From Candidatus Saccharimonadota bacterium (GTDB lineage Bacteria; Patescibacteriota; Microgenomatia; UBA1406; GWC2-37-13): a stretch of 32,000 nucleotides of DNA. Positions 2,433 to 30,173 of this stretch are shown here, in pieces (position 1 is the first letter of the stretch; the number at the start of each line of letters is the position of its first letter). The DNA lies in the NCBI GenBank assembly GCA_016700135.1, contig CP065004.1:1200001-1232000 (forward strand), read 5' to 3'. Under the pieces are notes generated by a model, which ran no database searches, was not told where the DNA came from, and was given only the letters and a program-made list of their open reading frames with translations. The position numbers and the translations under genes are program-made.

Positions 2433-2452
2433 AAAATGGGATAAATTGTAAT

Positions 2453-2502
2453 GTCGTAACAGAAAGATCCCGAAACATCCGCCGACTGGCGGACATGACG
2501 AC
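2453..2502 (-). repeat. Partial or degenerate copy (D) of the CCGCC-N4-GGCGG-tipped hairpin repeat (module M1)
   Basis: GTCGT...CAT-CCGCC-GACT-GGCGG-ACATG-ACGAC. The tip at 2479-2492 matches the tips at 20398, 25254 and 30001. The minus strand reads GGCGGATGTTTCGGG. This shares GGCGGAT with copies B and C, and ATGTTTCGGG with the sequence just 5' of copy A. Confidence 0.55.
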
Positions 2503-2514
2503 ACGTATTAGCTC

Positions 2515-4911: not shown

Positions 4912-5509
4912 ACGGATTGACCGTAACGGCCGTGTTGTATCCGGGGTTCTCAGCCGGTCTCATCGCGTTCGGGTAATTGATATCCGTTTTGACACTGTGA
5001 GAGAGTTCCTTGAGTTTTTTAAACAGAGCATACGGATCATGAATGCTGTCCATCTCATGCGGATGCGGCACGGCACCGTTTTTGGTTTGTCTGAATGCAC
5101 CCGGCGTCATCACGAGAATCGAGCCCGTATTCTGGTTGAAGATTTTGTCGAAGAAATCAACATTGACCGAGACATCCGTGATCTGATCGAAGTCAATGGA
5201 TTTAAGATCGCGGCCGACCAATCCGCCTTCCAGGATTACCCTTTTATTCGTGACGGCATAATAAATATTGTTGTATACAAAAAACCGATACAATGTCGGA
5301 CCGAATATCATGATCGGACCGATGTACACATGCGGGATAAACCACCCGAATGACGTACCGAACAAAAAAGGAATCGTCATCGCAGACCACACCAGTCCGA
5401 AGGCAGCCAAAAACAGGTTACCGCCGTTGAAAACAAACGGAAAAAACGCCGGCTTGCCCTCCCAGAATATCGTTTCATTTGTATCAAGGATTTGATGTAT
5501 TGTTCTCAT
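4877..5509 (-). CDS. Membrane protein with bacterial PH (bPH_2/YdbS-like) domain
   Basis: 210-aa ORF. ETIFWEGKPAFFPF is followed by two hydrophobic helices and a C-terminal beta-rich region (ITDVSVNVDFFDKIFNQNTGSILV), as in YdbS/YdbT-type PH-domain proteins. Confidence 0.6.
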   Translation of the reverse strand: MRTIHQILDTNETIFWEGKPAFFPFVFNGGNLFLAAFGLVWSAMTIPFLFGTSFGWFIPHVYIGPIMIFGPTLYRFFVYNNIYYAVTNKRVILEGGLVGRDLKSIDFDQITDVSVNVDFFDKIFNQNTGSILVMTPGAFRQTKNGAVPHPHEMDSIHDPYALFKKLKELSHSVKTDINYPNAMRPAENPGYNTAVTVNPFEQKPDGTTTN

Positions 5510-6874: not shown

Positions 6875-7993
6875 TGAATAAGTTACGAAAGATATGGCAC
6901 TCATAGGGAACTAACATCTATGAGTAAATGGGGAGGAGATCAGCTTCGAGTAATTAGGAGTTATGACTGGCAGTACAATAGAGATCTTATGAAAAAGATA
7001 CGATCTCTATCAGACTACAATCAGTCAGATGTAGCACAAATCAGAAACGATGTTCTGACATTTGCAGAGAAGTACGGGATACAAGCTGCAGTTGATGCAT
7101 ATGGGATATCACGAAGGACATTGTTTCGATGGAGGAAGAGACGGCGAGATTCAGAAGGGCAGTTGGATAGCCTGATACCAGAGACAACCAAGCCAAAGAC
7201 ACCCCGACGTATGGAGACTCACCCGAAGGTCATATCCTTTATCAAAGAGATTCGAGAACAATACTTTTGTTTGGGAAAGGAGAAGATCAAGCCCTTACTT
7301 GATGAGTATTGCCTACAGGAAGGAATTTCAACTATATCTGAGTCAACCATTGGAAAAGTGATCAAAAGACACAACCTGCAGCGCAAGACCTACCGGATCT
7401 ATCACAATCCAGCAAGTGGCTTTGCAAAACGGAAAGTAAAGTACCGACAGAAGGTCAAGCGGTCTCCCAAGGTGGAAGATACCGGATACATTGAGATTGA
7501 TACCATCACGAAGTTTGTACACGGAATCAAGCTGTATGTCTTCAATGCAGTGGACATCAAACTCAAATTCCAGTTCTCCTACGGATACTCAAAACTCAAC
7601 AGCCGAAACGGTGCTGATTTTATGAGAAGACTGGAACTAGTATACCCAATACAAGATGGTATAAAAACCATACAAACAGATAACGGCCTCGAGTATCTGG
7701 GAAACTTCCATGACTATCTGGAAGAAAACAATATCCCACACCTCTTTATCTACCCCAGATGTCCCAAGATCAATGCCTTTATTGAGCGAGCAAACAGAAC
7801 ACTCCAGGAAGAATTTATGAACCCCTACATCTATACCAAGTGGACCGGTATCGGATCATTCAATCGTCACCTTATTGAATACCTCGTCTGGTACAATACA
7901 AAGCGAGTTCACAAAAGCCTGAACAATATTTCACCTATGGATTACCTATTATCTATTTTACCTAAAGAGTGCCATATGTATGGAACTCATACA
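6875..7993 (+). mobile_element. IS481-like insertion sequence, copy 1 (1119 bp)
   Basis: Identical by visual comparison to 25521..26639. Imperfect terminal inverted repeats: IRL TGAATAAGTTACGAAAGATATGGCACTC, and the reverse complement of IRR TGTATGAGTTCCATACATATGGCACTC. Single rve/DDE transposase ORF. No clean target-site duplication (left flank ..ACTATC, right flank CACTAT..). Confidence 0.9.
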
Positions 7994-8459: not shown

Positions 8460-11400
8460 CTAACTACTCGATATCCCAAAAAATCTTTCAAAAAATTTTG
8501 TCAATTTATCAATTACTGTTTCTCTCTTTTTTGTTCTTTCACCTGTTGGTGTAAATCGAGATACAGGGGGAAGAACTCTTGTAAGCTCAGTACCAGATGT
8601 AGAAATATTCCCATTCCTAAAGGCATTTTTTATGAATTTGTAGGTAGCATCTCGGTCGAGGTTTTCTTTTTCAATTATTTGTTCTAGTTCCTCAACTTTT
8701 TTGCCTTCAACAAAATTTCTCCAGTCATCTTCAACTACAGAGTGAACATCCAAAGTTGAAATAAATTGATTAATAAGGTCTTTTTTGTTTCTGAGTTCAA
8801 CACTTGAGTCGATGGCTTTATTTATATCAATCAGTACTTCTTTGTTTTTTGTATGACTCTCATGATATTTCTTGATCAGCTGAAGAATATAATCAATATT
8901 AATATCCACTTGCTTGATAAGCTCCATTTCGAAAACTACATCATCATTTACATTTTCTTTCTCAACAGTAGCGGTATTTCTAAACTCATTGTAAAGATCG
9001 ATGTAGGCACTGTGATAATCTTGTACATCTCGATCAGTAAGTATCTCGTTTCCCGCAAATTCATCAAATGTTGTTAAAATATTTCTAAGTCTCAGAATTG
9101 AGCCATAGAGCTTGATGAAATCTTTTTGATCCTGCTCACCTAGAATTCGTTCACCAACAGGGAATCTAGATTGCAGCTCTGCTATAAGATCAACATAGCC
9201 TCGAACTTCTTTACCTTTATCCGAATAACCATTGTAATAATCTGAATATGCCTTTAAGAGGACAATGCCGCTTGCCTCCTTGTCTCCAAATAGCGAGAGA
9301 GATTCATTAGTTGCTTTTTCCAGATTTCGAAAGCAAACAATGTTTCCAAATGTTTTGACACTGTTAAGAATTCTATTTGTTCTAGAAAATGCTTGGAGCA
9401 GGCCATGCAAACGTAAATTTTTATCTACCCAGAGTGTATTCAGCGTTGTTGCATCAAATCCAGTAAGGAACATGTTCACGACAATCAAAATATCTACCTC
9501 ACGGCTTTTTACTCGTTCACTCACGTCTTTGTAGTAATTCTGAAACTTGTCTGAAGAAGTGTCAAAAGATGTTCCAAAATGTTTGTTATAGTCCTTGATC
9601 GCAGCTTCAAGAAAATCTCGAGAACTTTGATCGAGTCCACTTGTGTCTTCTGAATTCTCATCTACCATGCCATCAGCATCCTCGTCATTGACCCCAAAGC
9701 TATAGATGAGTGCTATTTTAAGTTGTTTATCTGAGGGAAGATCTGCGAGTTGTTTTTTAAACTCTGCATAGTATGTCTTTGCAAACTCAATGGATGAAAC
9801 GGCAAAAATTGAGTTAAAGCCTGCAAGGCGTCTATCTTTTATTTTATAAAAACTATTTCTTTTAGTTTTCTGGTCAAAATGCTCTCTGATGTAGGTGACA
9901 ATATTTGATATGCGCGTCGGATCAGAAAGTATTGCCTCACGATCGATATCACTGACTTTTTTGTCCTCAATATCTTCTGCTTCTCGAACTGTTGAAATAT
10001 AGTCCACCTTAAAAGGCAGAACATTCTTATCAGCGATTGCATCAACAATAGTATAGATGTGTAACTTTTCTCCAAAGGCTTGCTCAGTTGTTTTTAAATC
10101 AGGTCTGCCACTCGATGAAGCATTGATAGCAAAGATTGGAGTGCCCGTAAATCCGAATATATGATACTTAGTAAATGCTTTTGTGATTGCAGAATGCATG
10201 TTACCAAACTGTGATCTGTGGCATTCATCAAATATTAAAACTACATGTCCATCATAAATTGCATGACCGTTGTTTCTTCTAATGAATCGATCAAGCTTCT
10301 GAATTGTAGTTACAATTATTCGAGCATTTGGATTCTCGAGCTGTTTCTTTAAAATTGCCGTACTTGTATTGCTATTCGCAGCACCCTTCTCAAACTTGTC
10401 GTATTCGCGCATTGTTTGGTAATCGAGATCTTTTCTATCAACAATAAATAAGACCTTGTCGATGTACGGTAACTTACTTGCAAGTTGTGCAGTTTTGAAA
10501 CTGGTGAGCGTTTTACCAGAGCCAGTAGTATGCCAAACATACCCACCAGCTTCAGTTGTTCCCATCTTTTTGTAATTAGTACTAACTTCAATTCTGTTAA
10601 GTATTCTCTCCGTTGCGACGATTTGGTATGGTCGCATCACAAGTAGGAGCTTGTCTGTGGTAAATACACAATAACGAGTGAGGATATTGAGTAGTGAATG
10701 TTTTGCAAAAAATGTTTTGGCAAAATCCATGAGATCTGTAATGGGCTTATTGTTGGCGTCAGCCCACCAGCTGGTAAATTCGTAGCTGTTGCTCGTTCTT
10801 TTCCCTTTATTTACAGTCCCTTGTCTAGAATCCTTTATATGTTGAGATCGAGTCGTGTTGCTGTAGTACTTCGTATGAGTGCCGTTTGATATCACAAACA
10901 ATTGGACATACTCAAAAAGTCCTGATGCTGACCAAAAACTCTCTCTTTGATATCGATTAATTTGATTGAAAGCCTCTTGAATAGCAACACCTCTTCGCTT
11001 GAGCTCGATATGCACTAGAGGCAGTCCATTTACCAAAATTGTCACATCATATCTATTTGCCCGTTCACCTTCATCGGTAGAGTATTGATTTACCACTTGT
11101 AAAACATTGTCGTGGATAGTGTCTTTCTTGAGGAGATAAATATTCTTTACTGTGCCGTCATCACGAGAAAGGTTTTTAATATAATCCTCTTGAATCGTCA
11201 AAGTTTTTTCTGCAATGCTTTGATTGGGATTGGCGAGTTCGCTAGTAAAGAATCTTTCCCATTCCGAATCTGTGAAAGTAAATGCATTCAGTTTTTCCAG
11301 TTGAGCACGTAGGTTTTGTACTAAATCTCTTTCTGTTTTTATTCGAATATATTCATATGCCTGTGATTCAAGTTGTTTAATAAATTCTTTCTCAAGTTCT

Positions 11401-11513
11401 GCCTCTGTTTGGTATGCAGCATCTCGTACAACACTGGCATCACGTACATATTCGGATACCACAGTACTTTGAGGTCCTTCTGCTACTAGGTTGTACTTAT
11501 AATCAGTTTTCAT
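8460..11513 (-). CDS. hsdR: Type I restriction enzyme, R (endonuclease/translocase) subunit
   Basis: 1017 aa. N-terminal PD-(D/E)xK-like block DVTILVNGLPLVHIELKRRG. SF2 motor motifs TGSGKT (motif I), FDECHRSQ (motif II) and GFTGTP. Overlaps the hsdS stop by 11 nt. Confidence 0.95.
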   Translation of the reverse strand: MKTDYKYNLVAEGPQSTVVSEYVRDASVVRDAAYQTEAELEKEFIKQLESQAYEYIRIKTERDLVQNLRAQLEKLNAFTFTDSEWERFFTSELANPNQSIAEKTLTIQEDYIKNLSRDDGTVKNIYLLKKDTIHDNVLQVVNQYSTDEGERANRYDVTILVNGLPLVHIELKRRGVAIQEAFNQINRYQRESFWSASGLFEYVQLFVISNGTHTKYYSNTTRSQHIKDSRQGTVNKGKRTSNSYEFTSWWADANNKPITDLMDFAKTFFAKHSLLNILTRYCVFTTDKLLLVMRPYQIVATERILNRIEVSTNYKKMGTTEAGGYVWHTTGSGKTLTSFKTAQLASKLPYIDKVLFIVDRKDLDYQTMREYDKFEKGAANSNTSTAILKKQLENPNARIIVTTIQKLDRFIRRNNGHAIYDGHVVLIFDECHRSQFGNMHSAITKAFTKYHIFGFTGTPIFAINASSSGRPDLKTTEQAFGEKLHIYTIVDAIADKNVLPFKVDYISTVREAEDIEDKKVSDIDREAILSDPTRISNIVTYIREHFDQKTKRNSFYKIKDRRLAGFNSIFAVSSIEFAKTYYAEFKKQLADLPSDKQLKIALIYSFGVNDEDADGMVDENSEDTSGLDQSSRDFLEAAIKDYNKHFGTSFDTSSDKFQNYYKDVSERVKSREVDILIVVNMFLTGFDATTLNTLWVDKNLRLHGLLQAFSRTNRILNSVKTFGNIVCFRNLEKATNESLSLFGDKEASGIVLLKAYSDYYNGYSDKGKEVRGYVDLIAELQSRFPVGERILGEQDQKDFIKLYGSILRLRNILTTFDEFAGNEILTDRDVQDYHSAYIDLYNEFRNTATVEKENVNDDVVFEMELIKQVDINIDYILQLIKKYHESHTKNKEVLIDINKAIDSSVELRNKKDLINQFISTLDVHSVVEDDWRNFVEGKKVEELEQIIEKENLDRDATYKFIKNAFRNGNISTSGTELTRVLPPVSRFTPTGERTKKRETVIDKLTKFFERFFGISSS

Positions 11514-12741
11514 ATTCTTTAAAAGTTAGTAGTTTATTTCTATAGTATTCATATTGTTTTCGTCTAGCAGCAAGCTCTGCTGGCAAACCTACAGAAATAT
11601 CATTCACCAAAGCATCAAATTTGTCTAGGATTGATACGATTCGTTCTTGTTCTTTGTCAGATGGTATCGGAATAATTGCCTTAGCTAATCCTCTATCGTT
11701 AATCGCAGATATTTTCCCAGATGAGACATACCGCTTAATTTGTGATCGAAAATTATTAGTTCTAAAAAAGTAAGAAACATATTTCGGATTTAGTTTGTGA
11801 GAAAAGGCAAAACAGGCATCATGAATAACTACATCTGAATTACCTAACCATGCTACTGCATTACCAATATCCTCAATAGTTTCACCTGCTGCAACAAGAA
11901 CAACATCGCCGTAATGTGCAGTTCTCAATCTCGATGCCAAATCGGGACTAATAAATGACTTGGTTTTTTCTGTCCAAACATTATAGTATGTATACATTTC
12001 TCCATAATGGATGCATGGAAAACCCTCCTCGAGAATATCATTTTTAACAAATCTTTTTCCTCGAGTAAAGTGACCGATTTCACCTAATGGTTGATGGTCA
12101 GCATTTTCAAGTTTGAACAAACCATTAATGTAATACTCATACTGCTTCTTTCTTGCTTCTAGTTCTGCTTCTAGTTCTGCTTCTAGTTCTGTAAAGGTAT
12201 CAATGATTTTTACAATTTCTTCTTGGATAGGGAGAGGCGGGAGGGGGATTTTAAACTTCTTTAAATTTTTCATTGAAATACTCGCAACTGTTGAGCCATC
12301 TGCCTGCGCAACAATCTTATCGATCAAATTATGAAAAATATAAATCAGGTATCTACTGTTCAAAATCTTATGATTCGGAGTAATCGCATATACTCCCTCC
12401 TTAATATTCCAATCAAGTGGAGCATCTTTTACTAGCGCTGTGCGGCCGATAGTTCCGGTGCCCGAAAACAAGACATCACCGACTTTCAACCTTGAACGCT
12501 TCTGAATAATTGATAATCCGTCATCATCAACTTTGTCAGTTTTTTCTGAATATTTAATATCAAACCCTGCTAACTCACGCACAGTTATATACCAGTTGCT
12601 CCCATCTGGTGGGTTGAGTTTAAAATTTTGTCTAGGATTAAGTCCAGTTCTTAGATCAGTAATTACTCCTCCCAACTCCAAAAACTCCACACCCTTAGGA
12701 CAAAGTTCAGTAATGAGTTTTTTGAATTTGTTATTTGTCAT
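11503..12741 (-). CDS. hsdS: Type I restriction-modification specificity subunit
   Basis: 412 aa. Two variable target-recognition halves are separated by the central helix TELEAELEAELEARKKQYEYY. The protein ends in the matching conserved helix ELAARRKQYEYYRNKLLTF. Confidence 0.93.
   Translation of the reverse strand: MTNNKFKKLITELCPKGVEFLELGGVITDLRTGLNPRQNFKLNPPDGSNWYITVRELAGFDIKYSEKTDKVDDDGLSIIQKRSRLKVGDVLFSGTGTIGRTALVKDAPLDWNIKEGVYAITPNHKILNSRYLIYIFHNLIDKIVAQADGSTVASISMKNLKKFKIPLPPLPIQEEIVKIIDTFTELEAELEAELEARKKQYEYYINGLFKLENADHQPLGEIGHFTRGKRFVKNDILEEGFPCIHYGEMYTYYNVWTEKTKSFISPDLASRLRTAHYGDVVLVAAGETIEDIGNAVAWLGNSDVVIHDACFAFSHKLNPKYVSYFFRTNNFRSQIKRYVSSGKISAINDRGLAKAIIPIPSDKEQERIVSILDKFDALVNDISVGLPAELAARRKQYEYYRNKLLTFKEYEN
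12155..12190 (-). repeat. Three perfect tandem 12-bp repeats (GCTTCTAGTTCT on the + strand) encoding (ELEA)x3 in the HsdS central spacer
   Basis: Units at 12155-12166, 12167-12178 and 12179-12190 are identical. They are in frame and translate to ELEAELEAELEA. Confidence 0.95.
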
Positions 12742-12800
12742 TTTTTTAAAGTATGAATAACCTTTTCATTGTTAATCATTTGGCGATAAATAATTTCCAA

Positions 12801-13292
12801 CTATTTAATATCAGAATTCACATATTCTCTTAAGATAGAAATTGATTCTCTTAACTTTTCATCAAAATTTAATTTTTTATTTGCTGGATAGTGGATACAG
12901 TTTCGAATATATGTGGGAAGCGTCACTTTTGCATCTTTGGTACTTTTCTTGCTCGTGTCTTGATAATCTTTAGCAAGCTTCTTTATTTGCTTAAAGTACT
13001 GGTCATCAAAAGGATTTATGCCAATGTTTTCGATGTGCTTTGTTTCATCCACTTCTTTAGAATTGCACTCCTTAACGTACCAATCTCTAAGCTTGTCATA
13101 AAGCTCATTGTGATATTGCTCGTCTAGTATATCGAATACCTCGAATGAAACTTCTGCATAACTTGTTAGTTTTTTATCAAATTGAGTTGCATGGGTATGT
13201 TCTTCAAAAGACTCATCGGCTTTCTTCTCTACTCGAAAATATCTGCCAAGATCTTTTTTATCAATCATGTAATTGGAGTGTGTTGCAAACAA
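12801..13292 (-). CDS. C-terminal part of the ABC/OLD-type ATPase (H-loop plus unrecognised ~140-aa module), separated by an apparent frameshift
   Basis: 163-aa ORF opened by TTG. It begins (L)FATHSNYMID, which is the H-loop (xxTHS) expected about 35 residues after Walker B of the upstream ORF. An in-frame TAA lies 4 codons upstream. The rest has no recognisable domain. Confidence 0.6.
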   Translation of the reverse strand: MFATHSNYMIDKKDLGRYFRVEKKADESFEEHTHATQFDKKLTSYAEVSFEVFDILDEQYHNELYDKLRDWYVKECNSKEVDETKHIENIGINPFDDQYFKQIKKLAKDYQDTSKKSTKDAKVTLPTYIRNCIHYPANKKLNFDEKLRESISILREYVNSDIK

Positions 13293-14362
13293 GACATCAT
13301 ATTATTTTTTTTGTTATTAGTAATTCCGATCAACTGAGTGAGCAAGTATTCTTGAGCTTTAGGATGCAAATGTGTCTCAGGTTCATCAAGCAAAAGAATT
13401 GTGTTCTCTAATTCCTCATTCTTATTCTCAGCCGCAATAGTCAATAAAAATGAAACAAACTGTTTAAAACCATCGCTTCGCATGTCAGAAGTTTGAGCCT
13501 TGCCTTTACTATCCAAGTCCTTGACATGAAAATTGATATGACCATCCATTATTTTAAAGGTAATCTTAACTGGATGATTTGGCCAAGCCGACTTAATATG
13601 TTCTGTAACATTATTTGCAAGAGTCTCTTCGAGAAATTCGCAATCTGTTGTATCAGCCAGGGCATCAGATAAACTTTGATTTATTTCTTCTTCCTTGATT
13701 GATGCCAGCAAAAAGCAATTTCTAAGTGGAATAGAAATACTGGTATCCGCAATAAATTGAGCAATATTAATTGGTTTAGAAATTAAATATCTGTCCTCGG
13801 CGGTCCAAAAAATTGTCTTATGCACGTTGTCTTTGAAAAAGCTAAGGATTTCGTCTGTACTTGAAATCTTAACTTCTTGATCATTCTGAATAACTGTTAT
13901 GGAGAAAATAGGTTCTGAGCTTGCAGTTTTAAAACAAATTCGAAAGTTAACAATTAGATCACTAGAGACTGAGTTATATGTGGGCTTCACAATTTCGTGT
14001 TTTTTAGATTCAGCAGGGATATTTTCCACTATTTCTGTTTCTGAAGGCTTTTCTAAACACATGTTTTCTTCTCTATTGTTTATAAGTTCATAAAGTTTTT
14101 GATCATCGGCAGGTGTTATCTCATATGAGTAAGTAACACATATATCTTTTTTTTGACGAAAGTCCTTTGATAAAGGAAGTTTCGTTCCGGATGCATCGAG
14201 CAAACCATCCTTTAAACCAATAGCTTTTAAGATAGATGATTTACCAGCTTCATTAATGCCAATTAGCCCATATGTAAAACTATCATCGTCTCTTACTTCT
14301 ATTGTAAAAGGTATTTTCTTTACACTTCTGTAATCTTCTATAGTAATTTTGTGAAGTTTCAT
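13265..14362 (-). CDS. ABC/OLD-type (AAA_15/AAA_21-like) ATPase, N-terminal part, embedded in the hsd operon
   Basis: 365 aa. The MKLHKITIEDYRSVK start is typical of OLD/AAA_15 proteins. Walker A is GINEAGKSS, the signature-like motif is RSDGFKQFVSFLL, and Walker B/D-loop is ILLLDEPETHLHP. The ORF ends 26 codons later without an H-loop. It starts 9 nt after the hsdM stop. Confidence 0.8.
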   Translation of the reverse strand: MKLHKITIEDYRSVKKIPFTIEVRDDDSFTYGLIGINEAGKSSILKAIGLKDGLLDASGTKLPLSKDFRQKKDICVTYSYEITPADDQKLYELINNREENMCLEKPSETEIVENIPAESKKHEIVKPTYNSVSSDLIVNFRICFKTASSEPIFSITVIQNDQEVKISSTDEILSFFKDNVHKTIFWTAEDRYLISKPINIAQFIADTSISIPLRNCFLLASIKEEEINQSLSDALADTTDCEFLEETLANNVTEHIKSAWPNHPVKITFKIMDGHINFHVKDLDSKGKAQTSDMRSDGFKQFVSFLLTIAAENKNEELENTILLLDEPETHLHPKAQEYLLTQLIGITNNKKNNMMSCLQHTPIT

Positions 14363-14371
14363 AATGATTAT

Positions 14372-15952
14372 CTAGTTATTTTCAATTTCTTTAACAATCT
14401 CATCAATCGCAACTCTTAGCTCATGTTGTCTTTTTACAATCTTTTCAATCTCTGCGTTAAGTTCTTTAATATCAATAACTTCTCTTGTATCTTCTGCAAC
14501 AACATAACTTGAGACAGAGATGTTGTATTCATTCTCTGCAATTACTTTGTTGTCTACCAGCTTTGCGAAATACTCTTGATCTTCGCGCTTGGAATACGCA
14601 TCAAGAATTTTTAATCTATTTGCCTCACTGAGCTTATTCTTATTGCCACCCCTTACAAATTCAGCAGAGGCATCTATAAAGAGTGTTTTGTTATCTTTTT
14701 TGCTCTTTTTAAGGACAATAATACAAGTTGCTATAGTTGTTCCAAAGAATAAGTCGGGAGGGAGTTGGATAACCGTATCAACATAATTGTTCTCAATGAG
14801 GTACTTACGGATTTTTTGTTCTGCACCACCTCTATACAACACTCCTGGAAACTCAACGATTGCAGCCGTGCCACTAGTTGAAAGCCACGACAGCATATGC
14901 ATCGTAAAGGCTAAATCAGCTTTACTTTTTGGAGCAAGTACACCTGCTGGAGAAAACCGAGGATCATTGATTAAAAGCGGATTTGCATCACCTTCCCATC
15001 TTATCGAGTAGGGAGGATTTGAGACAATTGCATCAAAAGGTTCATCATCCCAGTGCTTTGGATCAGTAAGTGTATCACCATGTGCAATGTCGAAATTATT
15101 ATAATTTACATCATGTAAAAACATGTTGATACGACAAAGATTATACGTAGTGAGATTTATTTCCTGACCATAAAATCCCTGTCGGACATTTTCTTTCCCT
15201 AGAACCTTTGCAAATTTGAGAAGAAGGGATCCAGAACCACATGCTGGATCATATACTTTGTTGACTTCCTTTTTTCCAATTGTTGTGATCTCTGCAAGCA
15301 ATTCACTGACTTCTTGAGGGGTGTAAAACTCTCCTCCAGACTTTCCAGCATTTGAAGCATACATCGTCATCAAGAACTCATATGCATCACCGAATGCATC
15401 AATTGTGTTGTCTGAGTAGTTGCCAAGACGTAGTCCCGCAATCGCTTCAAGAAGTTTTACAAGCTTTTGATTTCTCCTTTCTACCGTATTTCCAAGTTTC
15501 CCCGAGTTCACATCAATATCGTCAAAGAGTCCTTTAAAGTCATCTTCACTATTTGCACCTTTTGCAGAGGCTTCGATGTTATTAAAGATTGATGCTAGAG
15601 TTTCATTGAGATTTGCATCGTTGCGTGCCTTTTTGACGACATTTTGGAATAACTCACTTGGTAAAATATAAAAGCCTTTTTCTTTGACAGTATCTGTTCT
15701 ACCAAACTCAGCTTCTGAGTCCGATAACGATTTGTAATCAAATTCAGGTTTACCTGCTCTACGCTCTTCAGCATTGATATAATTGGTCAGGTTCTCACTG
15801 ATAAAGCGGTAGAAAAGCATTCCCAAAACATATTGTTTAAAATCCCAACCATCAACACTACCTCGAAGGTCATTTGCTATCTGCCAGATTGTACGATGAA
15901 GTTCTGCACGTTCTTGTTCTTTTGTCATGTTAGTATTAGGTTTTATTGCCAT
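14372..15952 (-). CDS. hsdM: Type I restriction-modification N6-adenine DNA methyltransferase subunit
   Basis: 526 aa. HsdM N-terminal helical domain, SAM-binding motif I VYDPACGSGSLLL and catalytic motif IV SNPPYS. Confidence 0.95.
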   Translation of the reverse strand: MAIKPNTNMTKEQERAELHRTIWQIANDLRGSVDGWDFKQYVLGMLFYRFISENLTNYINAEERRAGKPEFDYKSLSDSEAEFGRTDTVKEKGFYILPSELFQNVVKKARNDANLNETLASIFNNIEASAKGANSEDDFKGLFDDIDVNSGKLGNTVERRNQKLVKLLEAIAGLRLGNYSDNTIDAFGDAYEFLMTMYASNAGKSGGEFYTPQEVSELLAEITTIGKKEVNKVYDPACGSGSLLLKFAKVLGKENVRQGFYGQEINLTTYNLCRINMFLHDVNYNNFDIAHGDTLTDPKHWDDEPFDAIVSNPPYSIRWEGDANPLLINDPRFSPAGVLAPKSKADLAFTMHMLSWLSTSGTAAIVEFPGVLYRGGAEQKIRKYLIENNYVDTVIQLPPDLFFGTTIATCIIVLKKSKKDNKTLFIDASAEFVRGGNKNKLSEANRLKILDAYSKREDQEYFAKLVDNKVIAENEYNISVSSYVVAEDTREVIDIKELNAEIEKIVKRQHELRVAIDEIVKEIENN

Positions 15953-19511: not shown

Positions 19512-20336
19512 ATGGCAATTGAAAGCTTTTTCCGTCGTTTGGGACTTCGAAGAGATCCCACAGCTCAAGATTATGGTGCTGCGGCAAGCATACTCGTCTA
19601 TTCCAATCACGGATCGGAGCCCGCTGAAAGAAAGCAGAAGATATCCAAACAGGAACTCGCACAGTATCCGGGCCTCGAACAATACCCCGAAGCACTTGAA
19701 TATTTAGCCCGGATCGGAGTATCACCGGCAGATTTACAATCTATCTATCCTGATTTTGAAGACTTCGCAGAAAGTGAATTTGATGACCGCGGACATGCAT
19801 TCAGATACATGGAAGGTCCCTACCAGCACTATCGGCTTGATCGTGTGATCTTCCCATCAGATACGCATTACCCCTATACCCTTGCAGTCGACCGGCAGAT
19901 GAGATATGCCCCCCACAGGCAGCATTCCTTCGGTCTTCTTTTGATGCCCGAAAGACGTATCCGAATGAATGTCTACCCTGACACCTCAGTATCCCTGCAG
20001 CTTCAGACTGCGACTCCTGACGATCTCACGGACATCGCTACCTTTTTCATCGACCCTGACGGCACAGTCGATTACAGTGAACATGCGATGCGTGCGAGTC
20101 ATTTTCTTCATGATGATGAAAGGAAACATCAGGAACGTCCCGTACCGCAGCGGCTCGACACCCTCACCGACCCGAGCGCCCTACAGTCCATTCCGTATTT
20201 TTCACAGGAATATCTAGAACAGCAGTGGGACCTTACTGAAGCAGATATTGCCGTACCGAGTCAGGAGCTTGCACGAAAGATTCTGACTGCGCCTGTCGAG
20301 ACGGGTGTGGACCTCAGAGCCATGCTTGCTCAGTAA
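19512..20336 (+). CDS. Hypothetical protein
   Basis: 274-aa ORF with no recognisable motif and no signal peptide. Followed directly by repeat copy A. Confidence 0.55.
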   Translation: MAIESFFRRLGLRRDPTAQDYGAAASILVYSNHGSEPAERKQKISKQELAQYPGLEQYPEALEYLARIGVSPADLQSIYPDFEDFAESEFDDRGHAFRYMEGPYQHYRLDRVIFPSDTHYPYTLAVDRQMRYAPHRQHSFGLLLMPERRIRMNVYPDTSVSLQLQTATPDDLTDIATFFIDPDGTVDYSEHAMRASHFLHDDERKHQERPVPQRLDTLTDPSALQSIPYFSQEYLEQQWDLTEADIAVPSQELARKILTAPVETGVDLRAMLAQ

Positions 20337-20357: not shown

Positions 20358-20440
20358 GTAAGCTTGTAACCTTAAATTAGAATTTATGTTATCCTGACCG
20401 CCGATTGGCGGATTGATTCAGGAACCATATCATAATTATC
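20358..20440 (+). repeat. Intergenic hairpin repeat, module M1, copy A
   Basis: GGTAAGCTTGTAACC lead-in. Long imperfect hairpin with inner stem TCCTGA/TCAGGA around the tip CCGCC-GATT-GGCGG (20398-20411). Confidence 0.7.
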
Positions 20441-20531
20441 GCTCGATACAATTTTTTATGCTCTGTGGGCGTGCTCGCCGGAATCAATAAGCTGCGCACC
20501 TCCCAATTCGCAAAAAAATTACATCTTCGCT
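20441..20531 (-). repeat. Intergenic hairpin repeat, module M2, copy A (inverted relative to M1)
   Basis: The reverse complement reads GCGAAGATGTAATTTTTTTGCGAATTGGGAGGTGCGCAGCTTATTGATTCCGGCGAGCACGCCCACAGAGCATAAAAAATTGTATCGAGC. This is nearly identical to 30066-30157 on the + strand. Confidence 0.8.
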
Positions 20532-20690
20532 CAAATTTATTTTCCTTTCATTCCAAACTTTGAGCCATAAGTTCATCGTCTCATGGACGGGTTTCAGATC
20601 TTATTGAAAGACAGTGCCGAACTCCCAATCCCTCTCTCAGACTCAATTCTCCTTTACAAACTATATATTATAGGCTATAATACATATTCA

Positions 20691-25113: not shown

Positions 25114-25139
25114 TGTATCTTTTCACCTGATCGACTAAA

Positions 25140-25172
25140 CACCCTCTGAAGCTAGCCGGAGGGTGTTTTTTT
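25140..25172 (+). terminator. Rho-independent terminator
   Basis: 7-bp GC-rich stem CACCCTC/GAGGGTG (25140-25146 / 25159-25165), a 12-nt loop, then T7 (25166-25172). Lies 27 nt after the stop codon. Confidence 0.8.
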
Positions 25173-25216
25173 GGGTTATATTTTCATCCTGCATTGGTTT
25201 CAAGATCTGTGTTTAT

Positions 25217-25302
25217 AAGCTTGTAACCGAAAATTTGTTCGGAAGTGAACTCTCCGCCAGCTGGCGGATCGAACATCCACTTCACTCACAAATTTTGATT
25301 AC
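25217..25302 (+). repeat. Intergenic hairpin repeat, module M1, copy B
   Basis: AAGCTTGTAACC lead-in. Nested stems GTAACCGAAAATTTGT/ACAAATTTTGATTAC and GAAGTG/CACTTC surround the tip CCGCC-AGCT-GGCGG (25254-25267). About 95% identical to copy C by eye. Confidence 0.85.
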
Positions 25303-25330
25303 TGCGCTTAACAAGTAGCTTTTCTGTGTG

Positions 25331-25417
25331 CTCGATGAAATTTTTTTGCGACTTGGGAGGTGCGCAGCTGACAGATTCTGGCGAGCACGCCCACAGAGCT
25401 AAAAAAATCACATCGAG
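25331..25417 (+). repeat. Intergenic hairpin repeat, module M2, copy B
   Basis: CTCGATGAAATTTTTTTGCGACTTGGGAGGTGC...GCACGCCCACAGAGCTAAAAAAATCACATCGAG. The basal stem is CTCGATG/CATCGAG, T7 pairs with A7, and the inner stem is GGG(AG)GTGC/GCAC(G)CCC. The apical loop is variable. Confidence 0.85.
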
Positions 25418-25520
25418 ACTAAAGAATTTACTTAGAATCCCGAACCTGTTCATAAGACGATAAACCAGAGCTCAGAATTCGGGATGACAAATACATGTCA
25501 ATATATCAACAATCTTCTTA

Positions 25521-26639
25521 TGAATAAGTTACGAAAGATATGGCACTCATAGGGAACTAACATCTATGAGTAAATGGGGAGGAGATCAGCTTCGAGTAAT
25601 TAGGAGTTATGACTGGCAGTACAATAGAGATCTTATGAAAAAGATACGATCTCTATCAGACTACAATCAGTCAGATGTAGCACAAATCAGAAACGATGTT
25701 CTGACATTTGCAGAGAAGTACGGGATACAAGCTGCAGTTGATGCATATGGGATATCACGAAGGACATTGTTTCGATGGAGGAAGAGACGGCGAGATTCAG
25801 AAGGGCAGTTGGATAGCCTGATACCAGAGACAACCAAGCCAAAGACACCCCGACGTATGGAGACTCACCCGAAGGTCATATCCTTTATCAAAGAGATTCG
25901 AGAACAATACTTTTGTTTGGGAAAGGAGAAGATCAAGCCCTTACTTGATGAGTATTGCCTACAGGAAGGAATTTCAACTATATCTGAGTCAACCATTGGA
26001 AAAGTGATCAAAAGACACAACCTGCAGCGCAAGACCTACCGGATCTATCACAATCCAGCAAGTGGCTTTGCAAAACGGAAAGTAAAGTACCGACAGAAGG
26101 TCAAGCGGTCTCCCAAGGTGGAAGATACCGGATACATTGAGATTGATACCATCACGAAGTTTGTACACGGAATCAAGCTGTATGTCTTCAATGCAGTGGA
26201 CATCAAACTCAAATTCCAGTTCTCCTACGGATACTCAAAACTCAACAGCCGAAACGGTGCTGATTTTATGAGAAGACTGGAACTAGTATACCCAATACAA
26301 GATGGTATAAAAACCATACAAACAGATAACGGCCTCGAGTATCTGGGAAACTTCCATGACTATCTGGAAGAAAACAATATCCCACACCTCTTTATCTACC
26401 CCAGATGTCCCAAGATCAATGCCTTTATTGAGCGAGCAAACAGAACACTCCAGGAAGAATTTATGAACCCCTACATCTATACCAAGTGGACCGGTATCGG
26501 ATCATTCAATCGTCACCTTATTGAATACCTCGTCTGGTACAATACAAAGCGAGTTCACAAAAGCCTGAACAATATTTCACCTATGGATTACCTATTATCT
26601 ATTTTACCTAAAGAGTGCCATATGTATGGAACTCATACA
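25521..26639 (+). mobile_element. IS481-like insertion sequence, copy 2 (1119 bp) with a 5-bp target-site duplication
   Basis: Identical by visual comparison to 6875..7993. Flanked by the direct repeat TCTTA (25516-25520 and 26640-26644). Confidence 0.92.
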
Positions 26640-26648: not shown

Positions 26649-26673
26649 CAATTTTGTACAGCTGTACTAAATT
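26645..26673 (+). promoter_or_regulatory. lexA promoter (TTGACA-N17-TAAATT)
   Basis: -35 TTGACA at 26645-26650, a 17-bp spacer, and -10 TAAATT at 26668-26673, 29 nt upstream of the lexA ATG. Confidence 0.6.
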
Positions 26674-26699
26674 GAAGTATACTATTAGTTCAGCTGTAC
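26656..26699 (+). promoter_or_regulatory. Two candidate LexA operators (GTAC-N4-GTAC type)
   Basis: A perfect 12-bp palindrome GTACAGCTGTAC (26656-26667) lies inside the promoter spacer. A second near-copy, GTTCAGCTGTAC (26688-26699), ends 3 nt before the ATG. Confidence 0.55.
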
Positions 26700-26702
26700 G
26701 AT

Positions 26703-27266
26703 ATGAAAGACGACAAATACGACATCCTAAGACGGTTCTACTTTAAATACCACTACATTCCGTCATTCCGTGAAATGAAAGACCTCTTTCACCTGCAGTC
26801 TCCCGGTGCAGTCGGCTACTGGATCAACCACTGGAAAGAAGAAGGATTTTTGGAAGTAAACAAAGAAAAGCTTATTCCGACGGACCGTTTTTTTGAATTT
26901 CCCCTTCTGGGTTCCATTCAGGCGGGTTTCCCGCAGGATGAACAGGAGAATTACGAGACGGTAACGCTTGTTCCGTTTACGATTGAAAATCCTGCCGACA
27001 CCTATGTTCTGAAGGTCAGAGGAGATTCAATGGAAGGCGCCGGAATCATAGAAGGAGACCTTGTCGTTTTGGACAAATCCCTCCGTCCCCAAACGGCCGA
27101 CATCGTCGCCGCTTTTATTGATGATGAATGGACACTCAAATACTATTTTGATAAAAACGGAAGAATATATTTGAAGGCCGCAAATAAAAAATATCCTGAC
27201 ATTTTCCCGAAGCGTAAGCTTGAAATCGGCGGCGTTGTCATCAAGGTTGTCAGAGAATACCGATAA
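26703..27266 (+). CDS. lexA: LexA-type SOS repressor (S24 peptidase)
   Basis: 187 aa. N-terminal winged HTH (IPSFREMKDLFHLQSPGAVGYWINHWKEEGFL). Ala-Gly cleavage site in GSIQAGFP. Catalytic Ser in VRGDSMEGAGI and Lys in DEWTLKYY. Confidence 0.85.
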   Translation: MKDDKYDILRRFYFKYHYIPSFREMKDLFHLQSPGAVGYWINHWKEEGFLEVNKEKLIPTDRFFEFPLLGSIQAGFPQDEQENYETVTLVPFTIENPADTYVLKVRGDSMEGAGIIEGDLVVLDKSLRPQTADIVAAFIDDEWTLKYYFDKNGRIYLKAANKKYPDIFPKRKLEIGGVVIKVVREYR

Positions 27267-27445
27267 CTATAAGCTTACATATCCCTTACTCCGAGGTACA
27301 GTTTGATACATTGCATTGATTTGAGCTCAATACTATAGTTTGTGTATAGAACTCACGCTCAATATCGGTACAATTTTCTTCTCTCTCTTCATAAAAAACA
27401 GTCTATTGTCGTCACATCAATTATCATTTTATTTTTTTGTGTTTT

Positions 27446-27934
27446 ATGTCAGAATTTTTCACACCGGCTGAGGTCCTTGAAAAACCGTGGGTCGTATATG
27501 AACTCCCTTATTTCCATGATGAATGGGAAGAGTGGAATAAAAGACTGCCAAAGAATTTGAGTCTCGTACATCATATCGGGAGCCGTGCATACTGGGAGAC
27601 ATTGATTTGGACAGAAGACGGAAGATATATGAATCTCCATTCCCACAACTTTGCACCGTTCGGTGTGCAGTTTGAAGAGGATGAGTATCGTGAGGCATTT
27701 GCCGTGGCAAAAAAACTCGCGAAGGACAAACGGGTTCATCATGTCAGATATGATCTTGAAGGCGCTGTGGAAGAGACGTGGAGAAACACTGCATTCAGGC
27801 ATATCCACGGACACTCAATGCACAAAATTCCCCCTGATCAACTGGCAACGGAATATATTGAAGTAAACGGAGAGTTCTGGCATATTCGGGAGTTTTACGA
27901 ATCGCAGCTTGCCGCAAATATAGGAAATTCTTGA
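27446..27934 (+). CDS. Hypothetical Trp/His-rich protein
   Basis: The ORF track opens at a TTG (27437), and the first ATG is at 27446 (MSEFFTPAE...). 162 aa with no recognisable motif. Confidence 0.5.
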   Translation: MSEFFTPAEVLEKPWVVYELPYFHDEWEEWNKRLPKNLSLVHHIGSRAYWETLIWTEDGRYMNLHSHNFAPFGVQFEEDEYREAFAVAKKLAKDKRVHHVRYDLEGAVEETWRNTAFRHIHGHSMHKIPPDQLATEYIEVNGEFWHIREFYESQLAANIGNS

Positions 27935-27996
27935 GCTTAGGGGAAATGGAAAAACCACTCACGATTCTATACGTGATCCTTCCCCTAACTCAAGAA
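27928..27996. repeat. 17/18-bp inverted repeat forming a long hairpin over the stop codon of the 27446 gene
   Basis: TTCTTGAGCTTAGGGGAA (27928-27945) pairs with TTCCCCTAACTCAAGAA (27980-27996) with one bulged C. The loop is 34 nt and no T-run follows. Confidence 0.6.
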
Positions 27997-28109
27997 TCTG
28001 TAGGATCGATCCTTATGGGTTACAATATTTTTCATATTGTAGTTACTAATCATACCTTCAAATAGTTCAAGAAATGGTAAAAGTGATGTAAGGAACAGGT
28101 AAGAGGAAA

Positions 28110-29912: not shown

Positions 29913-29963
29913 TTCCGTCCCGATAAACTCGTTGTCAACCAGCGGAACATGATTTGGAACTGT

Positions 29964-30049
29964 AAGCTCGTAACCAAAAATTTGTTCGGAAGTGAACTCT
30001 CCGCCAGCTGGCGGATCGGACATCCACTTCGCTCACAAATTTTGATTAC
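29964..30049 (+). repeat. Intergenic hairpin repeat, module M1, copy C
   Basis: AAGCTCGTAACC lead-in. Stems GTAACCAAAAATTTGT/ACAAATTTTGATTAC and GAAGTG/CACTTC surround the tip CCGCC-AGCT-GGCGG (30001-30014). Confidence 0.85.
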
Positions 30050-30069
30050 TTCGCTTTAATAAAAGCGAA

Positions 30070-30157
30070 GATACCGATTTTTTTTGCGACTTGGGAGGTG
30101 CGCAGCTTATATATTCCGGCGAGCACGCCCACAGAGCATAAAAAAATCGTATCGAGC
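30070..30157 (+). repeat. Intergenic hairpin repeat, module M2, copy C
   Basis: GATACCGATTTTTTTTGCGACTTGGGAGGTGC...GCACGCCCACAGAGCATAAAAAAATCGTATCGAGC. The basal stem GATACCGA/TCGTATC differs from copy B but remains complementary. Confidence 0.85.
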
Positions 30158-30173
30158 AATAAAATCATCCCCC

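Follow-up and report, generated by a model that had tools for sequence, protein, structure and literature searches.

Small intergenic hairpins recur in a 32-kb stretch of CPR bacterial DNA (the window, 32,000 nucleotides, whose KamA protein matches QQS43758.1 of Candidatus Roizmanbacteria, CPR, at 100% identity), and they recur again at matching places in related genomes. They share their ends, fold on one strand, covary, turn over between relatives and have had their tips replaced. With moderate confidence we interpret the hairpin under study, M1, as one family in a superfamily of dispersed non-coding intergenic hairpin repeats, which would also take in a sister module, M2, and the E-type elements of relatives, and whose mobilising enzyme would be encoded elsewhere in the CPR host. 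Dispersed repeat families are hardly described in CPR/Patescibacteria, and we found none in the literature searched. Judging from sequence comparison, M1 appears to belong to a new family of dispersed strand-specific hairpin repeats in a CPR genome, which forms mosaics with a sister module, is kept folded by selection and turns over between relatives.

The original prediction placed four copies, A to D, in the window. All four were recovered with the positions, stems and tips it described (Table 1), and the stop codons it gave at 20336, 25113, 29912 and, on the minus strand, 2515 are correct. It was also right that no U-tract follows any copy: a terminator scan of both strands at A, B and C found none at the hairpins, the one true terminator being that of the Big_7 gene upstream of B. 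The palindromic tip CCGCC-N4-GGCGG occurs four times in the window (at 2479, 20398, 25254 and 30001) against 0.12 expected, and 0 of 100 shuffles reach four. The pattern TCCGCCANNNGGCGG-N15-35-GTTACRANNTTA fits 4/4 window copies, with 0 matches expected. Copies B and C are 89% identical across 109 nt. Copies A to C are dispersed at spacings of ~4.8 kb with genes between them on both strands, and the four copies follow genes that have no relation to one another (Big_7, KamA, a 274-aa protein and YgjP). No ORF is conserved over the M1 copies, a concatenated six-frame translation of the repeats, meant to reveal spurious ORFs annotated on other copies, retrieved nothing from a protein database, and the window scan found no promoter-like site for the M1 folding strand. 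All copy counts refer to the window (32 kb) and the fetched loci of relatives, not to whole genomes. A placement always 3' of a plus-strand gene, as first described, does not hold: D lies inside a minus-strand operon, B lies beyond the terminator of its upstream gene, and the folding strand is the minus strand in 4/4 copies.

Table 1. Positions of the hairpin repeats and adjoining features in the window.
Feature	Position	Strand	Description	Model match
M1 copy A	20358..20442	-	Divergent hairpin; leader GAGCGAU:AAUUAU, tail GGUUAC:AAGCUUAC and tip all kept; middle stem UCCUGA/UCAGGA	
M1 copy B	25210..25308	-	Long imperfect hairpin; minus-strand reading AGCGCA:GUAAUC...GGUUAC:AAGCUUA	R1, 115 bits, E 1.6e-24
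M1 copy C	29957..30055	-	Between convergent kamA (+) and uvrD (-)	R1, 110.9 bits
Hairpin D	2449..2504	-	Gap in minus-strand operon, from ygjP-like stop 2515 to next ATG ~2432; tip module GUCCGCCAGUCGGCGGAUGUU	
Palindromic tip TCCGCC-N4-GGCGGA	25253..25268 (B); 30000..30015 (C); 20397..20412 (A); 2478..2493 (D)		GC-rich	
M2 copy beside A	20429..20539	-	Head-to-tail with A; junction GAGCGAU common to both	R3, E 0.28
M2 copy beside B	25322..25426	+	T7-GCGACTTGGGAGGTGCGCAGC-loop-GGCGAGCACGCCCACAGAGC-A7; ends ..:GAUG...CAUC:GAGAC	
M2 copy beside C	30057..30169	+	Head-to-head with M1 C; ends AGCGAA:GAUACC...GUAUC:GAGCAAU	R3, weak, E 0.018
Small inverted repeat TTCGCTTT-AATA-AAAGCGAA	30050..30069		Leaders of M1 C and M2 C, head-to-head	
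Intrinsic terminator of the Big_7 gene upstream of B	25137..25178	+	Canonical; M1 B lies beyond it; kept in L009, L011, L013 and L017	

The hairpins are asymmetric between the strands. The minus strand gives the better hairpin in 4/4 window copies: the folding energy of B is -37.2 kcal/mol on the minus strand (z -6.0) vs -24.1 on the plus strand, that of C -37.2 vs -25.0 and that of D -17.0 vs -12.8 kcal/mol. G-U pairs on the minus strand of the M1 copies become C-A mismatches on the plus strand, and because the minus strand uses these G-U pairs, it alone forms the full structure. The strand that was originally read as structured is thus the wrong one. Across the genomes compared, the forward strand of the element is the more stable in 11 of 12 M1-like copies (for example -28.9 vs -14.0 kcal/mol), in five of six further superfamily members and in six of seven M2 copies. 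In D the pairing that flanks the tip, AUGUCCGCC/GGCGGAUGU, has G-U pairs on one strand, and their confinement to one strand around the tip points to a single-stranded form. The GC skew of the plus strand (window 1-32000) is negative in 14 of 16 2-kb bins and only +0.009 in the other two; the folding strand is the G-rich strand for 4/4 M1 copies, a number too small (n=4) to test for a replication-strand bias.

We compared the window with syntenic loci from five related lineages, ~250 kb with Pfam labels: GCA_964504235.1 (KamA identity 91%; loci L009 and L019), ERZ4756921 (79%; L011 and L020), ERZ27293400 (76%; L013 and L021), SRR32414324 (75%; L018 and L022) and GCA_002329205.1 (67%; L017). Further copies were found in these five lineages. 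The closest relative has three M1 and four M2 in the 21 kb of L009, compared with four tips and three M2 in the 32 kb of the window. Its M1 elements of the B/C type lie at sites B, C and E, the last between uvrD and tpiA, and L011 has a single one, at site B. Elements of the same build with other stem sequences occupy site C of L013, L017 and L018. The E-type elements lie just upstream of tpiA (~30 nt, sense) in L011, L013 and L018, their site and orientation being constant in these three lineages. These 80-125-nt hairpins with shared ends AGCGNA:G...C:RAGCTTA, at matching intergenic sites of five related genomes, make up the superfamily. Two covariance models were built independently, R1 on the B/C type and R2 on the E type, and each finds members of the other type, without exception in matching orientation: R2 matches the window at 25207-25316(-) with E 2.4e-6, and R1 matches L018 at 5315-5429 with E 6.6e-4.

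In an alignment of 11 members (A5), 97% of cells pair and 16 of 25 pairs have changed on both sides, values that are flattered by the fitting of the alignment to the model; 0 of 500 shuffles reach the observed value, and slid controls pair at 32-40%. An independent MAFFT/RNAalifold analysis of four E-type sequences found 15 of 25 pairs to be compensatory. The pairing and compensatory changes in these two sets, together with the strand asymmetry, show that the hairpin is real, strand-specific and under selection. The selected structure in the original prediction is therefore well supported by covariation once true homologues are aligned, but not by the stems that it compared. No covariance model aligns A or D with B/C, or detects A; the "covarying stems" of A to D are accordingly different hairpins with a common tip and are not homologous along their stems.

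M2, which the earlier reading overlooked, is a second hairpin repeat of ~100 nt that adjoins A, B and C; the copies after B and C are on the plus strand, and the one after A is inverted. M1 and M2 stand head-to-head at B and C, with leaders pairing as in the small inverted repeat of Table 1, and head-to-tail at A. Nearly all members start with (A)AGCGNA:G(U/A)A... and finish with ...(U)AC:RAGC(U/G)(U/A)A, as judged from their tabulated ends; the ends of M2 are of this same type, and the superfamily model R3 finds M2 weakly. M2 loops have been exchanged between copies, the one at window site C being nearly identical to that of the L009 element at site E. This alternating modular arrangement of M1 and M2 resembles a BIME mosaic. 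Between kamA and uvrD, L011 has a tandem duplication of ~224 nt (11040-11465) that holds a GTTACC...GGTAAC hairpin, a diverged right half of M2 and the uvrD-end hairpin.

Position and orientation change between close relatives. Even genomes with 91-95% protein identity differ in which copies they have. The M1+M2 unit at site B of the window (~25199-25425) finds its best match at another locus of L009, uvrD-tpiA, and the site-B unit of L009 itself is inverted with a different spacer; a simple M1-M2 inversion at this site was rejected on the difference between the spacers. At site A, L009 has only M2, in the opposite orientation, and L011 is empty. At site C the element is reversed in L013, L017 and L018. 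Between co-directional genes, A, B and the site-B copy of L011 are antisense to both neighbours, and D and the site-B copy of L009 are sense; since both kinds occur, there is no orientation rule. Copy C lies sense behind uvrD. The sequence AGC(G).../...AGC(T/G) flanks nearly all copies; in the B/C type it is always AGCTT on the 3' side and AGCGNA on the 5' side. Because it is nearly constant, the flanking AGC may belong to the element: it could equally be part of the element or base-paired, and need not be a target-site duplication. The compared loci hold no clean filled/empty site pair.

The original prediction described the tip as conserved. Across genomes, it is the least conserved part of the B/C type: between orthologous copies the apex differs at 7-8 of 14 positions, compared with 4-5 of 76 elsewhere (Fisher p = 2.5e-4 to 1.5e-5). 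The L009 ortholog at site C has arms as in the window and a different tip. The hypervariable apex keeps a fixed length, 14 nt in a 28-nt frame. L009 and L011 have a common apex, GAGCU..CA..U..GGCGAG, and this other pattern in both implies that the CCGCC tip is derived in the lineage of the window. In ~190 kb of related genomes the tip does not occur; the same hairpins are there at sites B, C and D, with other sequences at their apices. At site D, the closest relative (L019) is without ~47 nt, and L020, L021 and L022 keep the flanks GTCAT...GGAT around interiors that differ. The GTAAC lead of D belongs to no shared module and is an ancestral flank: its GTTAC corresponds to TTTTAC already present at this site in relatives. 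The distance from tip to GTTAC varies between 15 and 27 nt, and the tip sits at the apex of a longer hairpin in every window copy. Among the genomes compared, the tip is thus specific to this genome and is not a family hallmark. The simplest reading of its spread is probably ectopic conversion between copies, with the conserved arms serving as homology.

A small ATCC...GGAT hairpin family was considered as the source of the tip and rejected; it consists only of the conserved hairpin at the uvrD end. This hairpin, GGATCCTGAA-loop-TTCAGGATGAC, occurs at L009 11301-11318, L011 11204-11222, L013 11132-11150 and L018 3419-3437, is conserved with covariation (CCTGAA/TTCAGG vs CCCGGA/TCCGGG) and has been lost from the window.

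Beyond the relatives, the lead+tip pattern was searched in larger collections. The scan of genome contigs gave four matches, three of them chance matches in high-GC coding DNA and one possible (L001, Flavipsychrobacter); among the four from metagenomes, L005 is real, L006 possible, L007 due to chance and L008, which overlaps tRNA-like sequence, was judged to be chance. With an estimated ~1-3 chance matches per collection scan, L001 and L006 could be chance as well. Viral contigs gave 0 matches to three patterns. The L005 contig belongs to Bacteroidota by its T9SS sorting domain. It shares GTCCGCCAGTYGGCGGATGTT (20/21) with D and GTTACRAGCTTAT(T)AAACACA with B; its GTCCGCCAGTTGGCGGATGTT agrees with D at 20/21, its tail GTTACGAGCTTATTAAACACA is as in B and its leader is A-like. 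The likeness extends well past the bases demanded by the search pattern. At L006 154-195 a possible M1-like hairpin (TCCGCCGGCTGGCGGA + TAAGATTGTAAC) lies ~1 kb past a 23S rRNA 3' end, with no 5S detected between. In this genome the tip has replaced the apices of three vertically inherited hairpins (B, C and D), sits inside a fourth (A) and has a near-identical copy in a Bacteroidota contig. One rather unlikely explanation is that the tip, as (G)TCCGCC-ARYN-GGCGGA(TGTT) of 16-21 nt, is a separate unit copied into the apices of unrelated resident hairpins. It would then play one of two parts: that of a nested micro-element aimed at hairpin loops, or that of the hairpin recognised by a single-strand DNA enzyme which was acquired horizontally and now mobilises old CPR hairpin repeats.

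According to the reading that we prefer, the element would be an imperfect hairpin of 80-125 nt with the ends 5'-(A)AGCGNA:G(U/A)A...(U)AC:RAGC(U/G)(U/A)A-3'. Such elements would duplicate, move or swap between intergenic sites and join into M1-M2 mosaics, head-to-head or head-to-tail, as REPs do in BIMEs. Resident copies would persist for long, with compensatory substitutions keeping the stem. We infer that they may spread as non-autonomous elements through a single-stranded hairpin intermediate, and that an enzyme encoded elsewhere in the genome may act at the base of the hairpin, where leader meets tail. When transcribed in the right orientation, a copy could form a REP/ERIC-like hairpin and act as a barrier or processing site in the mRNA. 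The CCGCC-N4-GGCGG tip would be a separate apical module that has probably replaced the apices of at least three inherited hairpins (B, C and D) by ectopic conversion between copies. Several observations speak against this reading: the constancy of the E-type elements upstream of tpiA suits a conserved cis-element better than a selfish repeat, no clean filled/empty pair with a target-site duplication was found in the compared loci, neither the window nor the Pfam labels of ~250 kb of related loci show a transposase or recombinase that could move the elements, and the ends of the IS in the window are unrelated.

These E-type elements, sense and ~30 nt from tpiA in three lineages, fit an explanation in which M1 is a cis-acting RNA element of the adjacent mRNAs (a U-tract-independent terminator, a protective 3'-end hairpin or an RNase processing site), selected for gene expression site by site and repeated for its usefulness only. 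The strong covariation, the G-U pairs on one strand only and the sense placement of D inside its operon and of C behind uvrD agree with it, as does the fact that other, unrelated hairpins are common at gene ends of these genomes. We nevertheless consider it unlikely. A, B and the site-B copy of L011 are antisense to both flanking genes, a canonical terminator already ends the gene upstream of B, orientation flips at the same site between close relatives, copies come and go among genomes with 91-95% protein identity, and the M1+M2 composite turns up again at a locus with no relation to the first. The 3'-UTR role that the original prediction had entertained is likewise at odds with how A and B are oriented and with B lying behind a real terminator. 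Two unrelated hairpins were seen between convergent genes of the window (27927-27997 and 28018-28047); the first spans the stop of the ORF at 27437-27934 and the second reads GGTTACAATAT...ATATTGTAGTTAC. As to chance hairpins, or remnants of one duplicated gene 3' end, to which the near-identity of B and C and their position after genes might point, we give them practically no credence: the genes upstream are unrelated, no ORF is conserved across copies, copies with covariation lie at several unrelated intergenic sites in six genomes, and chance is excluded by the tip count and by the lead+tip pattern.

The tip itself, a perfect 5-6-bp inverted repeat with a 4-nt spacing that occurs in four intergenic regions of this genome only among those compared, might also be a double-stranded DNA operator for a dimeric genome-specific DNA-binding protein, the stems being incidental. 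This is very unlikely, for the tip always lies exactly at the apex of a longer hairpin, its flanking G-U pairs are on one strand (in D, for example), its positions are unrelated to promoters, and the GTACAGCTGTAC pairs that precede the lexA-like gene, a genuine operator of the window, are quite unlike it. The two palindromes there (26649-26704; TGTACAGCTGTAC, GTTCAGCTGTAC) overlap a promoter, TTGACA-N17-TAAATT, a short way ahead of the Peptidase_S24 (lexA-like) gene; kept in all relatives, they are likely an SOS-type operator. Highly improbable, too, is an independently transcribed small or guide RNA (M1 with or without M2) that targets through its apical loop, in the manner of TIGR units, bridge RNAs or antisense kissing loops. 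Conserved stems around a hypervariable apex of fixed length would suit such an RNA, and CPR bacteria are known hosts of TIGR-Tas arrays (PMC12045711). The folding strand, however, has no promoter-like site or terminator in the window scans, the copies are dispersed and form no tandem array, their neighbours include no gene for a Nop-domain protein, recombinase or nuclease, and no Rfam family matches; 10-mers of the tips and M2 loops, searched as possible targets in ~330 kb, occur elsewhere at chance level only.

Among the candidates of the original prediction, a REP/BIME-like or non-autonomous repeated element fits M1 best. The RAYT or IS200/IS605-type gene proposed along with it was not found in the window or in the Pfam labels of ~250 kb of relatives' loci. 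The same two sets show no transposase or recombinase that could move the elements, and in the window there is no reverse transcriptase, HUH transposase, integrase or Nop-domain protein. BLAST against plasmids and phages gave no match. The window does have two 100% identical 1119-bp IS copies (6875-7993 and 25521-26639), IS481-like, with one rve/HTH transposase ORF each; the second is flanked by a TCTTA direct repeat, and L009 has the empty site (...TTTTCTTATTGAC...). The ends of this IS, TGAATAAGTTACG.../...CTCATACA, are unrelated to those of M1 or M2, so that it is no parent IS with the same terminal repeats. A low-GC island at 8460-15952 (34-37% vs ~44% elsewhere) contains type I restriction-modification genes (hsdR, hsdS, hsdM) and an AAA_15/AbiEii-like ATPase.

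As for known RNA families, the Rfam comparison proposed at the outset gave no family at threshold: Rfam 15 has 0 matches at or above the gathering threshold in the window and none at the elements in eight loci, and relaxed searches of the window and L011 gave only matches with E >= 0.17. Only L005 has a sub-threshold match, to RF02621 BSnc120 (29.6 bits, where gathering requires 114; E 3.4e-5 with 251 nt searched), a Brucella suis sRNA of function not known (PMC9751625). The match includes UUAUCAAYAAGUUA and a hairpin with a GC-rich tetraloop, but none of the window copies matches, the score falls far short of gathering, and a generic terminator-like hairpin may be all that the similarity reflects; it serves as a lead only. 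Also rejected were a diversity-generating retroelement hairpin (no reverse transcriptase, no template/variable repeat pair) and, on inspection, kink-turn and box C/D readings of the internal GA/GA loop, which do not suit the register of the stem.

If the preferred reading holds, small streamlined CPR genomes still carry REP- or ERIC-like elements. Such repeats would be possible strain-typing markers and could confound the annotation of small RNAs and terminators; following them up might also bring to light an enzyme for single-stranded hairpins that has so far escaped recognition, and provide evidence that CPR bacteria and Bacteroidota exchange DNA.

The definitions of REP, MITE, attC, IS200/IS605 end, terminator and TIGR each differ from M1 in at least one feature tested. 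Like integron attC sites, M1 is a single-strand-specific hairpin with a conserved base and a variable terminal structure that lies after genes. Unlike them, it has no RYYYAAC/GTTRRRY cores, intI or cassette array, its ends are GUAAUC...GGUUAC:AAGC, and it occurs ~4.8 kb apart among genes on both strands. MITEs of the ERIC and Correia type occur in both orientations, are co-transcribed, have an RNA hairpin that may affect mRNA stability and form size variants by internal replacement. As in ERIC/IRU (RU-1) and Correia/NEMIS elements, M1 is an intergenic imperfect palindrome, theirs being ~100-150 nt (PMC2759123, PMC3184786, and in part general background), and the terminal inverted repeats of a MITE are present in the arms of the hairpin. 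It is unlike them in sequence, shows neither a TA nor any other clear target duplication, has no parent IS with matching inverted repeats, and lives in a CPR host whose genome measures 1.45 Mb. Pneumococcal BOX elements consist of linear modules, boxA-boxB-boxC, with different internal modules between conserved end modules. The interiors of M1, M2 and the E type similarly sit between the same AGCGNA:G...C:RAGC ends, but BOX modules are linear and do not form one hairpin with an exchangeable apex.

The end hairpins of IS200/IS605 elements and their gene-less derivatives (PATEs; PMC2775950) share with M1 a strand-specific DNA hairpin with a short TTAC motif at its foot. There, however, a fixed distance would be expected in place of the 15-27 nt between tip and GTTAC, and M1 has no separate left and right ends and no tnpA or tnpB gene near it. 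The TIGR-Tas stem-loop arrays of CPR genomes are tandem stem-loops with box C/D motifs and an adjacent Nop-domain Tas gene (PMC12045711), unlike the dispersed M1 copies in a window in which no Nop-domain protein was found. A REP is a palindrome of 20-40 bp with a GTAG or CGTC tag at one end (PMC3733652); M1 is 80-125 nt long with the tag GTAAC (GUUAC on the folding strand), and it is not a REP doublet, because its arms contain no internal REP palindrome. REPs number tens to hundreds in a genome, which also encodes a RAYT (a Y1/HUH transposase), as a rule with repeats on its flanks; for M1, 3-4 copies were counted per 21-32 kb in two genomes. The REP/BIME and REPIN-RAYT systems of E. coli and Pseudomonas (PMC3116915, PMC3733652) resemble M1 in several features: these too are dispersed extragenic palindromes that fold as single strands, lie in either orientation and often after genes, form mosaics with other motifs head-to-head and head-to-tail, vary between strains yet persist for long, and carry a short conserved tag beside the stem. 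By analogy, M1, a member of no described family, would be most like REP/BIME or ERIC elements in the way it works.
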